Below are positions 48,107 through 52,657 of a DNA stretch of 64,000 nt, piece by piece. Made by a program: the position numbers and the translations under genes. Source of the stretch: Deltaproteobacteria bacterium. GTDB lineage: Bacteria > UBA10199 > SBBF01. The notes below the pieces were generated by a model. That model did no database searches, was not told the origin of the DNA, and was given only the letters and a program-made list of their open reading frames with translations. The stretch's first letter is position 1. Each line of letters starts with the position of its first letter. The stretch is from positions 41,907 through 105,906 of the forward strand of contig JACPFC010000026.1 in NCBI GenBank assembly GCA_016183175.1, given 5' to 3'.

Positions 48107-51100
48107 ATGGCCGATATCCGAATTCCAAATGGTTTGCCGACAAGTCCTCCCGAAAAACCTGCTGTCCCCGATACGTCTGCCGGCGTGAATAAGTCCGATG
48201 CCGTTGAGCGGGGGGGCAACGGAGGAAACGGCAACGGCGATTCTTTTGTTCAGGGGGAAATACCCCCTGTATGGATGAGGGCAGGCGCCGAGCCTCCGAG
48301 TCGAATCGTGGCAAGGGTTTTTGCCGGTTTGCCGGCGCCGGAAACACCGCCTGAAACTGTAACGCGCCCTGTGGCGCCCGTTGTGTCGCCGCTGGTTCAA
48401 GAAATGGCCGATCGATGGGGGACAGATACGACGGTTGTTCATCAAGCTCTCGAACGATTTTCCCGCCTGGTTGGGAATGGACCGGAAGATCTTCCAAGCC
48501 ACAGCCGTTTGACAAGCGTGCAAATGGGTTTTTGGTTTGCCTTTGCGATTGCCGATCTTCTGGTCCAAATCGTGAAAGGAAAAGTCAAAGGGGATATTCG
48601 TCTGGAAGACTTCAACCGACTTCTTCCTGTCGTATCGAGTTACATCATGCGGGCCTCCGGCTGGTCGCCGAATATCGATCCAACAAGTCTTTCAGCAATC
48701 ACGCGGGCCATCCTTCGTTCTCGTCTGGAGAATCGCCCCCTGCTTATAACCAACACCCACGAGAGCTGGACCGATATTACCGCAATTGCGAGTTTGTTTC
48801 GGGGTCTGCCGAACCGGTTTGTCTACAAAAAAGAGTTGGAATTGGTGCCGGGCCTCGGGTTCGTATTGATTTTTGCCGATATGACCCCTGTTGCGCGCCC
48901 GCCCAAAAAACCGGAAGAGGCTGACTTTGTGAATAAGAAGGGATTCATGAATTGGAATAAATATGAAAATGCCCTGGCAAAATATGAAAGAGCGCTTGCC
49001 GGGGCAATTGCCGAGATGGAGGCCACTGCTGAAAAAATCACCCGCTTGGGAACCATCAGCATCGATTTTACGCCGGGAACCAGAAGCCGGGCCGGGGCCG
49101 GTGTGGGAGTGGCCAAAAAAGGTTTTGCCAATCTGTTGATCGATCTGGATGCCGTCGGTTTGGTTCTGAACGTTGAAGGGACCTCGCAGATTATGCCGGT
49201 CAGTTGGGGAAAATTTCTCGCCACGGAAGGGGCCGGGACCAACCGGCGTGTCGATGTCCGGGCGGTGGATATTTACCACGAGGATTATAAACCAGCGGAA
49301 GGGCTGTCCGAAGGCGACCAACGCAAAGCCCACGTGCAGGCCATACGCGATGCGGCCGAGGCCATCCAGGTCCGGAATGGAATTGCCATTATCGACGATT
49401 GGCGTCGGTCGGCTTCTTCTCTGGGAGAGGTGGCTGAACCGGCTCAGCCGGTTGAACCGGTTCAACCGGCCAATCGGGAACGGGTCCAGCTGGACGAACT
49501 GTTGGACCACTTTGTGGATGCCTTTCGCCTGATCGATACCCACGATGAAAAAGGATTGCGGACATGGTGTGAAAAAGGGCGTGTGGCTGTCGATTATGTT
49601 CGGGCCTTACGGGAATGGATTCCCACAGCGGAACTTAAGGCCCTGTATATGCGTTATCCGGACGAGACCGACTTGCCTTGGCTCCTTGAGATAGCCACCC
49701 CCCTTTCCGACCCTTTTGGCAAAAACAAAGAGGCCCCTGTCGAGGCGCGTCGGGCCCGGGATCTGGTGAATCAATATCTCGATGCCTCGCGGGAGGCCTT
49801 TTTGCAGTTGCGGCTCGAACCGGAAAATTTCAATTCCTGGGCCGAGGATCATGGTATTGACGCCGCCTCTGTCCGCTTGCTTGCAGAGAGCCTCCCTCCC
49901 GAAGAGATCGATGGTGTTTTTGCGAGAGCCGGCCATGTTTTGTACAGACCGCTTAAGGGGGGGCAACGGTACGAAGATGCTGATAGAACCTGGCAGACCA
50001 TGCGCACCCAGAGATTCGGCAAATGGCTTGTCGGTAATCTTCTTTCCCGATCCGGCAGAAAATTATTGACACCGTGGAAAAGCCCCGTGCCGGGGAGACC
50101 GCAAATCGGGCAACGGGAGGCGCCCGGGGAACCTCCCGGTTTCGAACGTCTCGCCCACGCCTACGATTCCGTTTATGCCCCTGAATACGAAAGGACACGG
50201 GCGCTTATCGAAGATCAATTGCAGTTGCAGTCGGACGATTTTAAAAGGAAATGGGACAGGTTTTTTAAGGAGGCACGATCCCTCCAATCGGGCTACCGGG
50301 AGCATTTCCGGGCATTTGTCGACAATTTTTTTGGAAGAGAACTGCCTTCAGCGGAGCCGGTCAGTCAGGCGAGCGATCGCCTTCACCGGGCCATCGTGGC
50401 AAGCCCTCTCCTTGACTTTCTGCCCGCAACACAGCGCATCGAGACGTTTTATCTGATGCAGGCACAAAGTGACTATGACGCCCTTCACGTTCCCGGCGAA
50501 AGGGGAGAGGCTTATCTGCGGGCTCGCGCCCATTTTTATGGGCTGTTGGGAAAGATTGCTTCTTTGAGGATCAAGGATAAGATTGCCGACAATCTTAAAA
50601 CCGATCCCCGCCGGGCCGGTTTTAAATCACTGCCGAGATATCTGTTTTATGCCCCCTGGAATATCGCCCTTCGAAACCGCGCTGAACGGGTGGTTCTTGT
50701 GTGTGAGGCGCTTGCCCGCGGTGTCGCGCTTGACCGGTTGCTGGAAGAGATTCAAGGGCAGATCAAAGCCCATCAAGAAACCAACAAGTGGCTGAAGCGT
50801 CATATGCCGGTGCAATATGCCAAGGAAAAGCAACGGCAACTTCAGGCCCGGCGTCACCATTTGGGGTATCTTGTCAAAAAATATGGGGCTGACTCGGACC
50901 TCAATGAGGTGTTGAACGAGTTAATCGGTGATGAATTCCAACCGCTTCCCGAACAGGAGAATCTTACCTTTGAAAAATTATTGAAAGGCGATTCAAATTT
51001 GAGGGGGGCCCGGGATGGTTATGAAGAAGCTTACGACCAATGGGTAGCCGCTTCCCGAGTCGACTTTGACCGCTTTGCCCCGCAAGTTTTTGAAACCGAG

Positions 51101-52657
51101 AAAGTGCTTTTTCGTTTTACCTTGGAATTACACCGCCTCGATGCTGTTTTACAGACGGCTCGTTATGCCGATTTGATGCAACAGGCACGAGAGTATGGAG
51201 GAGTGAGCCGGGAGCATGAGAAAAGGTTTGCGCAGGCCATGGGGGCCTATCGTTTGGCCATGGACGAGTATTTTGCGAACGCCGAGGCCATAGCCAACTT
51301 GGCTCCGGAGGGGAAGGAGCCCCAGCGAAAAACAAAGGAAACGAAGGTTTTGAGGGAGGCGTGGCTTGCCTTGCAATGGGTTGTTGCCGACATCTATAAA
51401 GAGATTGAACATCCTCATGCCGGGAGGCTGGAACCATTTTCGGCCATGTTTGTGAATCAGGCGCCCTATTTGAATAACGTGGCTTCCGGAGAACAGGAGG
51501 GGATTAAGCCTTTCTTTGAGGCGATTACCTTCGACAAGAGCCTTCAGGCCTGGATGGAGACCGTTCTGGGGGGACGCGATCCGCGGCGGGTTGCCCAGGT
51601 TATCGGGGAATTTGGATTGGATGCCCTCGCGCGGAGCCAAGATGATGTGGTAATCATGGGCGGAGCCGTTTTGGCAGGATTGGTGGGGCAGTCATCGGGG
51701 GCCGCCCTGGCCGAAGGGGGCTTTCATCTTCTCACCGAAGCCCAGGCAAGGGATTACGGTTTTGTCCCCCGAACCGTGGTGTACGATGCCAATCATGTCG
51801 GATATAACGATCTTCAACTGGTTGCTTTAAAATATGGAGTTGGGTTGGGGCAATCGGCACAGGCCTACGAGAAGAAAAATTTTGAGCAGTTTCCTACCCT
51901 CGGTACGGCCTTTGTGTATGGGGATGGGGTGGGATTCGAAAGGGATCGCGATGGGAGTGAAGGATTGCAAAGGGCGCTGGCCAATGCCCACGATCGCGGT
52001 GTGTCGCCGTTTGTTTTCGGCTCCGGAACCATGAGGGTCTTGGCCGAAATGCTTCCTCTTTCGGACGAACCGATAGCCCTTTTTGCTCCCCGGCCTTCCA
52101 TCGTGGGGGGTAATCGGGCCGAAGCGGCTTTGATGGCCCGCAGGGTAGGCACCGTCCTTGTTCATGTCTGGCAGGCACATCCCCAATCGGTTCATCCCGA
52201 TATCGGCTTATCGGGTGGTTTATGGGCGAAAAATGTCATCGAACCCTACGGCCTTCTTCCGGGGGTTCCTCTGGGGGGGACGGCGGTTCTGTCCTATGGT
52301 TCTCCTTTCCCGGGAGAGGCCTTCCCCGGCACTGCCGATGAATTACACGCACGCCTTGGTGTTGAAGGAGCAAGGCCTAAACAGGAGGGGAATGGGGAGG
52401 TGCGTCGCTACATGGCCGCCTGGACCGAGATGGGTAAAGTAGGGGCCTATTTCAACTGGCTTGCCTCGGAGGCGGCGCCACTGAACACGGTTGCCGGTTT
52501 GGGCGTTTCCGCCCCGGCCCTTTCCCCGGTTAGTCCGGGCATCGCCGGTGTCGCCGGTGTCGCGGGCGCCGCCGCAACTGTCGCTTCCGTGGCGGTTCCA
52601 TTAGCCCCCGCTGTTCCCCTTGTAGCAATGCCGCCGGTAGCCGTGCCGGCGGTGTAG
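48107..52657 (+). CDS. Giant hypothetical protein (1516 aa) with embedded lysophospholipid/glycerol-3-phosphate acyltransferase (PlsC/LPLAT)-like motif set and an Ala/Val/Pro-rich C-terminal tail
   Basis: aa ~215-390: LITNTHESWTDI (HxxxxD motif I), FVYKKELELVPGLGFVL (motif II-like) and LNVEGTSQIMPVS (EGT motif III). The C-terminus ...PGIAGVAGVAGAAATVASVAVPLAPAVPLVAMPPVAVPAV. The rest is unassignable. Confidence 0.6.
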   Translation: MADIRIPNGLPTSPPEKPAVPDTSAGVNKSDAVERGGNGGNGNGDSFVQGEIPPVWMRAGAEPPSRIVARVFAGLPAPETPPETVTRPVAPVVSPLVQEMADRWGTDTTVVHQALERFSRLVGNGPEDLPSHSRLTSVQMGFWFAFAIADLLVQIVKGKVKGDIRLEDFNRLLPVVSSYIMRASGWSPNIDPTSLSAITRAILRSRLENRPLLITNTHESWTDITAIASLFRGLPNRFVYKKELELVPGLGFVLIFADMTPVARPPKKPEEADFVNKKGFMNWNKYENALAKYERALAGAIAEMEATAEKITRLGTISIDFTPGTRSRAGAGVGVAKKGFANLLIDLDAVGLVLNVEGTSQIMPVSWGKFLATEGAGTNRRVDVRAVDIYHEDYKPAEGLSEGDQRKAHVQAIRDAAEAIQVRNGIAIIDDWRRSASSLGEVAEPAQPVEPVQPANRERVQLDELLDHFVDAFRLIDTHDEKGLRTWCEKGRVAVDYVRALREWIPTAELKALYMRYPDETDLPWLLEIATPLSDPFGKNKEAPVEARRARDLVNQYLDASREAFLQLRLEPENFNSWAEDHGIDAASVRLLAESLPPEEIDGVFARAGHVLYRPLKGGQRYEDADRTWQTMRTQRFGKWLVGNLLSRSGRKLLTPWKSPVPGRPQIGQREAPGEPPGFERLAHAYDSVYAPEYERTRALIEDQLQLQSDDFKRKWDRFFKEARSLQSGYREHFRAFVDNFFGRELPSAEPVSQASDRLHRAIVASPLLDFLPATQRIETFYLMQAQSDYDALHVPGERGEAYLRARAHFYGLLGKIASLRIKDKIADNLKTDPRRAGFKSLPRYLFYAPWNIALRNRAERVVLVCEALARGVALDRLLEEIQGQIKAHQETNKWLKRHMPVQYAKEKQRQLQARRHHLGYLVKKYGADSDLNEVLNELIGDEFQPLPEQENLTFEKLLKGDSNLRGARDGYEEAYDQWVAASRVDFDRFAPQVFETEKVLFRFTLELHRLDAVLQTARYADLMQQAREYGGVSREHEKRFAQAMGAYRLAMDEYFANAEAIANLAPEGKEPQRKTKETKVLREAWLALQWVVADIYKEIEHPHAGRLEPFSAMFVNQAPYLNNVASGEQEGIKPFFEAITFDKSLQAWMETVLGGRDPRRVAQVIGEFGLDALARSQDDVVIMGGAVLAGLVGQSSGAALAEGGFHLLTEAQARDYGFVPRTVVYDANHVGYNDLQLVALKYGVGLGQSAQAYEKKNFEQFPTLGTAFVYGDGVGFERDRDGSEGLQRALANAHDRGVSPFVFGSGTMRVLAEMLPLSDEPIALFAPRPSIVGGNRAEAALMARRVGTVLVHVWQAHPQSVHPDIGLSGGLWAKNVIEPYGLLPGVPLGGTAVLSYGSPFPGEAFPGTADELHARLGVEGARPKQEGNGEVRRYMAAWTEMGKVGAYFNWLASEAAPLNTVAGLGVSAPALSPVSPGIAGVAGVAGAAATVASVAVPLAPAVPLVAMPPVAVPAV

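Follow-up and report, generated by a model that had tools for sequence, protein, structure and literature searches.

Enzymes of the lysophospholipid acyltransferase (LPLAT) and glycerol-3-phosphate acyltransferase (GPAT) fold are normally small, single-domain and slowly evolving housekeeping enzymes of lipid synthesis. The described systems closest to the protein reported here are PlsC and the 1-acylglycerol-3-phosphate acyltransferases (AGPATs), the large GPATs with helical accessory domains, and the acyltransferases LpxL, LpxM and PatA. AGPATs are defined by four motifs, xHxxxxD, GxxFxxR, xxEGxx and xxxxPxx (PMC8753187). The window analyzed here, a 64,000-nucleotide (nt) stretch of contig JACPFC010000026.1 from a "Deltaproteobacteria bacterium" metagenome-assembled genome (MAG), carries in the riboflavin operon, between ribD and ribE, the gene for a protein of 1516 amino acids (aa), hereafter the giant protein, with two domains assigned to this fold by profile comparison, AT1 and AT2. 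The reading we favor, to which a probability of about 0.5 is given as a whole, is that the giant protein is a membrane-peripheral dual acyltransferase whose acceptor is other than glycerol-3-phosphate or lysophosphatidate, and which performs two acylations.

Domain organization

The features of the gene, all on the forward (+) strand, are as follows.

48107..52657, +, whole gene, putative dual-acyltransferase giant protein, 1516 aa (open reading frame (ORF) list, translation)
48107..48403, +, N-terminal Pro/Gly-rich variable region, aa 1-99 (composition)
48419..49417, +, AT1 module, aa 105-437, a hydrophobic helix and then the LPLAT/PF01553 domain (Pfam, family alignment, profile against the Protein Data Bank, PDB)
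48758-48775, +, AT1 motif 1, H218..D223 (family alignment)
AT1 motif 2 Arg, R264, and block IV with the following GT, aa 352-359, + (family alignment, profile)
49067-49090, +, AT1 motif 3, FTPGTRSR, aa 321-328 (profile against PDB entry 5kym)
49469..51610, +, central all-helical rod of stacked helical bundles, aa ~455-1168
51611..52462, +, AT2, predicted second LPLAT-fold domain, invisible to Pfam, aa 1169-1452
51794-51811, +, AT2 motif 1, NHVGYND, H1230/D1235
AT2, further motifs: KKNFEQFPTLG, 1256-1266; GFER with R1279; FGSGTMR, 1304-1310; GTVLVHVW, 1348-1355
52463..52654, +, C-terminal Ala/Val/Pro low-complexity tail, aa 1453-1516 (translation; predicted local distance difference test score, pLDDT, <50)

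The ORF is a real gene and runs from 48107 to 52657, as the initial annotation had it. Its 1516 codons begin with ATG, a ribosome-binding site (GGGAGA) lies 7-8 nt 5' of the start, and codon usage and GC content by codon position are like those of the housekeeping genes in the window. An NCBI MAG protein from a "Deltaproteobacteria bacterium" (P0001, named PlsC) is 100% identical to the translation. When the giant protein, whole and in segments, was compared with Pfam, NCBIfam and the PDB (phmmer), PF01553 was the sole match.

Both ends of the protein are variable. The N-termini of the homologs are mutually unrelated and range from 200 to 1000 aa in length. The Ala/Val/Pro tail is not conserved either, homologs carrying other low-complexity tails that are frequently Arg-rich. 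A hydrophobic or amphipathic helix (aa 135-156), conserved in the subfamily, precedes the AT1 acyltransferase domain and resembles the membrane-docking helices of PlsC. No further transmembrane-like segments were found in the giant protein, the Pro-rich tail excepted.

The N-terminal acyltransferase domain

The Pfam Acyltransferase family, PF01553, matches residues 208-348 with 26.0 bits against a gathering cutoff of 23, and was found in 9 of the 15 family members scanned (best E 4.7e-19). In an alignment of ten AT1-type sequences (A7), H218, S220, W221, D223, R237, F238, R264, F321, G324, T325, R326, and G358 are invariant. The profile built from this alignment matches Thermotoga maritima PlsC (5kym) with an E value of 5.7e-11 and with blocks I-IV all in register. 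Motif 1, stHeSWtDi, lies opposite ANHQSLMDI of 5kym; RFtykkeLllvplLg lies opposite AFIAKEELRKIPGVN; tlldR, in the motif 2 region, opposite VFLDR; aFlpGTRsktG, motif 3, opposite VFPEGTRSPDG; and LvLvltleGt, block IV, opposite VLPVSIWGT, the window residues here being LVLNVEGT (352-359). By fold and profile, AT1 is a genuine PlsC/LPLAT-type acyltransferase domain.

The strings picked out by the initial annotation, NTHESWTD, FVYKKELELVPGLG, EGT, and the Ala/Val/Pro tail, are all present (216-223, 238-251, 357-359, and ~1453-1516), and its assignment of the first as an HxxxxD motif of PlsC/LPLAT type is borne out by the PF01553 match above cutoff and by alignment on NHQSLMD of 5kym. Its motifs II and III have to be moved. 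FVYKKELELVPGLG, taken for motif II, is a conserved stretch between motifs 1 and 2 that aligns on AFIAKEELRKIPGVN, and the motif 2 Arg is R264. EGT, taken for motif III, corresponds to the "GT" just after block IV, with a Glu that is unconserved; both the 5kym profile and a BLASTP alignment with Escherichia coli PlsC, in which FTPGTRSR is paired with FPEGTRSR, place motif 3 at residues 321-328.

Set against the AGPAT motifs, AT1 retains motif 1, H218 and D223 being invariant in the ten sequences. Only the Arg of motif 2 is conserved (R264, aligned with FLDR of 5kym), while the Gly and Phe positions vary. In motif 3, the Glu gives way to Pro in the window protein and to Pro, Ala, Gly, or Met across the family, with G-T-R invariant, and LVLNVEGT lacks the motif 4 Pro. 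The NCBIfam PlsC model TIGR00530 scores 31.5 bits (cutoff 102.95), and the YihG-type and OlsA models score at most 19 bits against cutoffs of 260-300; because the PlsC-type models fall so far below their cutoffs, the NCBI name "PlsC" is an over-annotation. In mutagenesis of E. coli PlsB by Lewin et al. in 1999, the motif 3 Glu was reportedly implicated in binding of the glycerol-phosphate acceptor. Its absence from AT1 suggests that the acceptor of this domain is different from glycerol-phosphate.

A second domain and the central rod

The C-terminal ~285 residues, AT2, are the most conserved part of the family. Invariant residues in nine sequences include H1230, D1235, N1258-F1259, P1263, and R1279, and F-G/D-x-G-T-x-R is largely conserved in the motif 3 region (FGSGTMR in the window). 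No Pfam match, PF01553 included, was found on this region in any family member scanned. The two best matches of the AT2 profile in the whole PDB are the PlsB-type GPAT 9vuq (E 0.029) and T. maritima PlsC 5kym (E 0.12), with both alignments in register across motifs 1-3. The AT1 and AT2 profiles also align with each other over motifs 1-3 (E 1.1e-4). AT2 thus has the predicted LPLAT fold, motif 1 as xHxxxxD, and the motif 2 Arg; remote relatives have H-x4-E in place of H-x4-D. Ser stands in place of the motif 3 Glu, and the AT2 of the window also lacks the motif 4 Pro.

The structural model and the profile alignments indicate that AT2 is a previously unrecognized acyltransferase-type (LPLAT-fold) domain. 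Since membership rests on fold and profile alignment and not on Pfam, it would represent a divergent, uncatalogued LPLAT branch. A SLOG/LOG-like identity, the first guess for this region, was ruled out by the PlsB/PlsC profile matches and the AT1-AT2 alignment. The initial annotation had assigned no function to more than 1100 residues following AT1; this no longer applies to ~280 of them, the second LPLAT-fold domain. Of the motif residues, AT1 and AT2 both retain the dyad of motif 1 (His-x4-Asp), the Arg of motif 2, and G-T-(x)-R in motif 3, and both are without the motif 3 Glu.

The ~700 residues between the two domains form generic helical bundles with no specific known counterpart. The helices directly before AT2 travel with it: P0016, P0017, P0025 (~940 aa), and P0024 share with the giant protein only these helices and an AT2-like domain.

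A rare and divergent family

A word-indexed search of 5.8 billion clusters with the giant protein as query returned only the giant protein itself (P0001), and a 15-sequence alignment as query added a single 513-aa fragment (P0006). Exhaustive phmmer comparison of residues 200-1399 with 1.84 billion cluster representatives identified 25 proteins at E<=1e-3, query included, 13 of them at E<=1e-30. Several are themselves giants, of 1314-1919 aa, with the last ~870 residues in common at 32-42% identity. Two scans of the GTDB representative genomes found no relatives. The family is rare but real, since 24 other representatives emerged from the exhaustive HMMER search alone, and the earlier description of the protein as an orphan falls. 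The nearest named relatives of the glyA gene of the source lineage are in Rifle/ACD groundwater "Deltaproteobacteria bacterium" MAGs (72-75% identity); the host lineage belongs to the uncultured groundwater 'Deltaproteobacteria'.

Contigs bearing relatives of the giant protein, with the protein, its identity to the window protein, and the local gene order, are as follows.

L002: P0006, 74% (N-terminal part); glyA-nrdR-ribD-333-aa ORF-giant
L003: P0002, 40%; ribD-70-aa ORF-giant
L004: P0003, 33%; ribD C-terminus, then directly giant
L005: P0004, 36%; giant-AbiEii/DUF2204 pair-ribE
L006: P0005, 28%; ribD-835-aa ORF-giant-ribE-ribBA-ribH-nusB
L007: P0007, 32%; elsewhere, outside the rib slot
L008: P0008, 32%; giant-ribE
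L009: P0013, AT1 alone in common; ribD-giant-ribE-ribBA-ribH-nusB

Between the window and L006, identities are 81% for glyA, 77% for ribBA, and 55% for ribD, and 28% for the giant protein. For the closer L002 they are 85% for glyA, 63% for ribD, and 74-78% for the comparable part of the giant protein. The Nei-Gojobori dN/dS (ratio of nonsynonymous to synonymous substitution rates) of the AT1 part in this pair is 0.18, as against 0.08-0.15 for six neighboring genes, with values that are rough because dS is near saturation; it indicates purifying selection, somewhat relaxed.

Two types of AT1 can be distinguished. The window protein is of type A (HxSWxD; F-x-x-GTR), as are P0005, P0006, P0010, P0011, and P0013; type B (PTHxSxxE[YF]; YPQGTR) is found in P0002, P0003, P0004, P0007, and P0023. 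Each type can be joined to the rod and AT2 or, as in P0013 and P0023, to another kind of C-terminal part. As judged from these alignments, the family diverges fast and exchanges modules. At locus L010 an AT1-type protein is followed immediately by an AT2-type protein, P0024; the adjacency of the two types there and their fusion in the window argue that they work together.

L010 (1-7402) and L011 (5597-18711), from another lineage, carry side-by-side giants with Gly/Ala-rich hydrophobic N-termini and a C-terminal AT1- or AT2-type domain. P0024 additionally carries an alpha/beta-hydrolase, and genes for an FlhB/YscU-family (Bac_export_2) protein, a VWA protein, and an OmpA protein lie near the giants of L011. 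P0007 (L007, 4643-19111) is the only full-length homolog outside the rib slot. Its neighbors are lipid and glycan genes, which encode a CDP-alcohol phosphatidyltransferase, an NAD-dependent epimerase/3beta-HSD-like protein, a class I/II aminotransferase, and glycosyltransferases. This arrangement presumably resembles that of bacterial sphingolipid or glycolipid clusters.

The ribD-ribE slot

The gene order in the window is glyA, nrdR, ribD, a 947-aa ORF, a 263-aa ORF, VapC, an antitoxin with VapC, and the giant gene, followed by Phd/Doc, a doubtful 143-aa ORF, ribE, and ribBA (then ribH and nusB). The features of the slot are as follows.

41468..42607, +, ribD, left border (Pfam RibD_C and deaminase; same neighbor in L002, L003, L004, L006, L009, L012)
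42774..46411, +, two upstream ORFs of 947 and 263 aa, variable between genomes, with hydrophobic stretches rich in Gly and Ala and no family matches
46591-47142, +, first VapC/PIN (family match)
47398-47613 and 47610-47978, +, AbrB-type antitoxin and VapC
52702..53361, +, Phd/MazE-like antitoxin and Doc toxin module, downstream of the giant gene
54220..56074, +, ribE and ribBA, right border (Pfam; same neighbor in L005, L006, L008, L009, L012)

A homologous giant gene adjoins ribD, ribE, or both in seven of the eight related contigs compared (L002-L006, L008, and L009; not L007). Its downstream neighbors are ribE or toxin-antitoxin (TA) genes, and the upstream ORFs are unconserved: for the 947-aa and 263-aa ORFs, no homology was detected to the ORFs that occupy this place in L002, L003, and L006. 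In a further contig, L012, from a RIFCSPLOWO2_12_FULL_40_28-type genome (glyA 75% identical), the gap between ribD and ribE is filled by a 2014-aa ORF (12891-18935) without Pfam match, and then by BrnA/CopG antitoxin-like genes. This ORF matches P0016 in phmmer (2e-15), the family rod profile (i-E 4e-7), and the AT2 profile (2e-4, over RGNHNGIMEF...YTAGTR, with H-x4-E); by these profile matches it is a remote relative of the family with a helical and AT2-like core.

The TA modules of the slot differ by genome, with AbiEii/DUF2204 in L005 (4053-4846), BrnA/CopG-like genes in L012 (18946-20028), and VapBC and Phd/Doc in the window; different modules have accumulated independently beside the giant gene. 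The VapC/PIN modules of the window (46591..47978) are missing from the slots of L002 and L006 and are secondary insertions. DNA similarity between the window and L002 ends just past ribD and resumes at 48393, codon 96 of the giant gene. Because synteny with L002 is interrupted there, one of the two genomes has undergone replacement or insertion of codons 1-95 and of everything back to ribD; the single block so affected comprises the 5' 95 codons, both upstream ORFs (947 aa and 263 aa), and the VapC modules.

No tRNA gene and no compositional anomaly were found in the 64-kb window, tblastn gave no plasmid or phage relatives of the giant protein, and no integrase or recombinase family was found among the ORFs scanned between ribD and ribE, smaller ORFs lying outside the scan. 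With synteny retained and with no tRNA, compositional break, or plasmid or phage relatives, the giant gene is an old resident of the ribD-ribE gap around which variable material has accreted. Rfam gave no family at gathering score between 38000 and 58000 of the window, and hence no flavin mononucleotide (FMN) riboswitch before the rib genes.

Several smaller features of the slot were noted. A ~55-nt element (…TTATTAAAAAAACCACGCAACTTTTCTTGAAAA) forms a direct repeat bracketing the vapBC module at 47168-47220 and 47986-48039, with 37 nt identical, and a diverged copy lies just 3' of ribD (42661-42713); the copies in the window thus sit 5' of the 947-aa ORF, vapB, and the giant gene. The exact repeat pattern was not found in other loci, and blastn alone detected diverged copies in L002 (166-202 and 8505-8570), one of which is inverted and lies at an unrelated locus. 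Possible identities for the element are a promoter, a dispersed repeat, and an insertion scar. The first PIN/VapC ORF (46496-47142 region) has a ~45-aa N-terminal extension ahead of the PIN domain, and an overlapping 76-aa ORF (46496-46726), without family match, is a candidate antitoxin for it. The 143-aa ORF after Doc (53496-53927, +), overlapped by 53454-53858 (-), has a poor codon-usage correlation with host genes (r 0.40), and neither strand gave a family match. This ORF is unlikely to be a gene, so that the ~850 nt before ribE are apparently non-coding. Upstream of the locus, a large minus-strand surface-glycan cluster (300-31000) includes a NeuB and CMP-transferase fusion, a DegT aminotransferase/epimerase, a sulfotransferase, a PEP-utilizing enzyme, DUF4910, and an 893-aa MopE/FG-GAP repeat protein (26600-29281).

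Possible function and alternatives

In the favored reading, AT1 (aa ~105-437) and AT2 (aa ~1169-1452) would be held apart by the helical bundles, and each would be an active acyltransferase dependent on acyl-acyl carrier protein (acyl-ACP) or acyl-coenzyme A (acyl-CoA). The acceptor is predicted to be neither glycerol-3-phosphate nor lysophosphatidate. At the membrane surface, both domains may act on a single lipid or glycolipid acceptor in two successive acylation steps, as do GPAT and lysophosphatidate acyltransferase (LPAAT), or LpxL and LpxM, acting as separate enzymes. The giant gene is a long-standing occupant of a hypervariable slot between ribD and ribE, around which TA modules and unrelated ORFs accumulate.

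Several points weigh against this reading. Neither domain has the motif 3 Glu, AT1 and the AT2 of the window also lack the motif 4 Pro, and since motifs 3 and 4 deviate, activity may be altered or lost. The confidence of the AT2 model is moderate (pLDDT 62-73), and the matches of its profile to the PDB (E 0.029 and 0.12) are marginal taken alone. The idea of two acylations on one acceptor draws on the fusion or adjacency of the domains and on analogy, and the activity, substrate, and localization of the giant protein are predictions from sequence. Moreover, so extreme a divergence (28% where glyA is 81%), together with the shuffling of modules, is unusual for an enzyme of envelope-lipid biosynthesis.

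That divergence, very fast relative to the neighboring genes, is among the observations behind a second reading, possible but unlikely, in which the giant protein is a delivered effector or toxin: exported or injected, it would remodel the membrane lipids of a target using the acyl-CoA or acyl-ACP of that target, with the variable N-terminus, the tail, and the Gly/Ala-rich upstream proteins serving delivery or membrane insertion. Consistent with this are the shuffling of AT1 types A and B with two kinds of C-terminal part, the non-homologous, variable upstream ORFs with glycine-rich hydrophobic stretches, the accumulation of TA modules in the same slot in several genomes, the Arg-rich tails of many homologs, and the position of a distant AT1-type giant, P0015, near an FlhB/YscU-family (Bac_export_2) gene. 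However, polymorphic toxins have the opposite layout, whereas here it is the N-terminus that varies and the C-terminus that is conserved, and the gene keeps a constant place within a housekeeping operon in different genomes, with purifying selection in the one close pair. No signal peptide, delivery domain, secretion-system gene, or conserved immunity-like gene was found at the locus, non-canonical signals being still possible. PADLOC and PHROGs gave no matches for the giant protein or its family-less neighbors, plasmid and phage relatives are lacking, and a targeted full-text search gave no secreted effector of the PF01553 fold. Limited full-text searches, in which absence is weak evidence, likewise returned no protein in which a helical rod carries two LPLAT domains, no PF01553-type secreted effector, and no acyltransferase in a rib operon. 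The suggestion that the protein is effector- or toxin-like rather than a housekeeping PlsC accordingly stands in its second half, on the grounds of TIGR00530, the motif 3 Glu, and the architecture, while the effector part is speculative.

It is tempting, if doubtful, to speculate that the ribD-ribE gap serves specifically for the diversification of modular giant acyltransferases acting on foreign or host membranes or varying the cell's own surface lipids. Interchangeable AT1 types would be combined with the helical rod and an AT2 core, and variation of the cell's own lipids would occur under phage or predator pressure.

It is rather improbable that the giant protein is a non-catalytic scaffold or pseudoenzyme, in which LPLAT folds bind lipid or acyl carriers and the helical rod acts as a tether or organizer at the membrane. 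The departure of both domains from canonical motifs 3 and 4 would fit such a role, but in both domains, over sequences of 28-45% identity, there is little or no change in the His-x4-Asp dyad, the Arg of motif 2, or G-T-(x)-R, a constancy not easily accounted for without catalysis.

Recent acquisition as cargo of a mobile island bounded by TA modules is highly improbable. TA modules do flank the giant gene, the 55-nt direct repeat brackets the vapBC module, and the segment from 42.7 to 48.39 kb has no counterpart in L002. Nevertheless, the giant gene is syntenic between ribD and ribE in genomes where glyA is 75-85% identical, tRNA genes, compositional anomalies, and plasmid or phage matches are lacking, and variability is confined to the TA modules and the upstream ORFs. 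The initial annotation had placed the gene between TA modules on an island and had proposed that homologs and their neighborhoods be searched. The modules are real (VapC, AbrB-type antitoxin with VapC, and Doc), but the neighborhoods identify a conserved ribD-ribE resident and not a passenger of a mobile island.

A housekeeping PlsC, that is, a 1-acyl-sn-glycerol-3-phosphate acyltransferase as named in the NCBI record, is barely credible: the PF01553 match accompanies that name, but TIGR00530 and the other equivalog models fall far short of their cutoffs, the motif 3 Glu is absent, and a 1516-aa, two-domain protein belongs to a family of only 25 among 1.84 billion representatives.

The giants constitute a new family of multidomain proteins that uses a known catalytic fold, and the biology of their locus is unusual. 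The family is unusual in placing two LPLAT domains, one too divergent for Pfam, in a chain of 1300-1900 aa, and in combining fast evolution and module swaps with a single riboflavin-operon position that attracts TA modules. If both domains are active, a diacylated lipid of a new kind or the modification of foreign membranes may result, and either would widen the known roles of the LPLAT fold. Were the slot indeed one of diversification, it would give the LPLAT fold its first effector or surface-variation system. The AT2 profile can be used to search for further hidden acyltransferases. These results correct both the first motif map and the database name, and illustrate how a protein may be misjudged an "orphan" from an indexed search, and how the name "PlsC" in a MAG record may be misleading.

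Comparison with known systems

The fold and profile of PlsC and the AGPATs (T. maritima PlsC 5kym, PF01553) are common to AT1 and AT2, and the His-x4-Asp dyad, the motif 2 Arg, and the motif 3 G-T-R are kept. However, PlsC has ~240 aa, in contrast to the 1516 aa, two domains, and ~700-aa rod of the giant protein; its motif 3 Glu is replaced by Pro in AT1 and Ser in AT2, and its motif 4 Pro is gone in AT1. The giant protein falls below the PlsC equivalog and subfamily cutoffs, and AT2 is unseen by Pfam in every member. Without the motif 3 Glu and with scores below the NCBIfam cutoffs, neither domain qualifies as PlsC or as part of the AGPAT glycerolipid branch.

GPATs with helical accessory domains (E. 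coli-type PlsB 9vuq, human GPAT1 8e50, squash GPAT 1iuq) resemble the giant protein in being large and in combining an LPLAT core with helical domains. They differ in having a single catalytic domain and a canonical motif 3 and in being slowly evolving housekeeping enzymes, and they have no detectable sequence similarity to the giant protein outside the core. LpxL and LpxM (lipid A) and PatA (phosphatidylinositol mannosides, PIMs) use acceptors other than glycerol-phosphate and, like the giant protein, have no strict motif 3 Glu. LpxL and LpxM act as separate enzymes in successive acylations, the model proposed for AT1 and AT2. These, however, are separate proteins of ~300 aa in known pathways, and the analogy concerns successive acylation rather than a lipid A or PIM substrate.

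The locus itself recalls hypervariable slots and flexible islands with giant genes, in which a fixed position between conserved genes holds divergent or replaced contents and TA modules build up, as here. In contrast to such islands, the slot of the giant gene lies inside the riboflavin operon, and its core occupant is not swapped for unrelated cargo but stays, if remotely, homologous.

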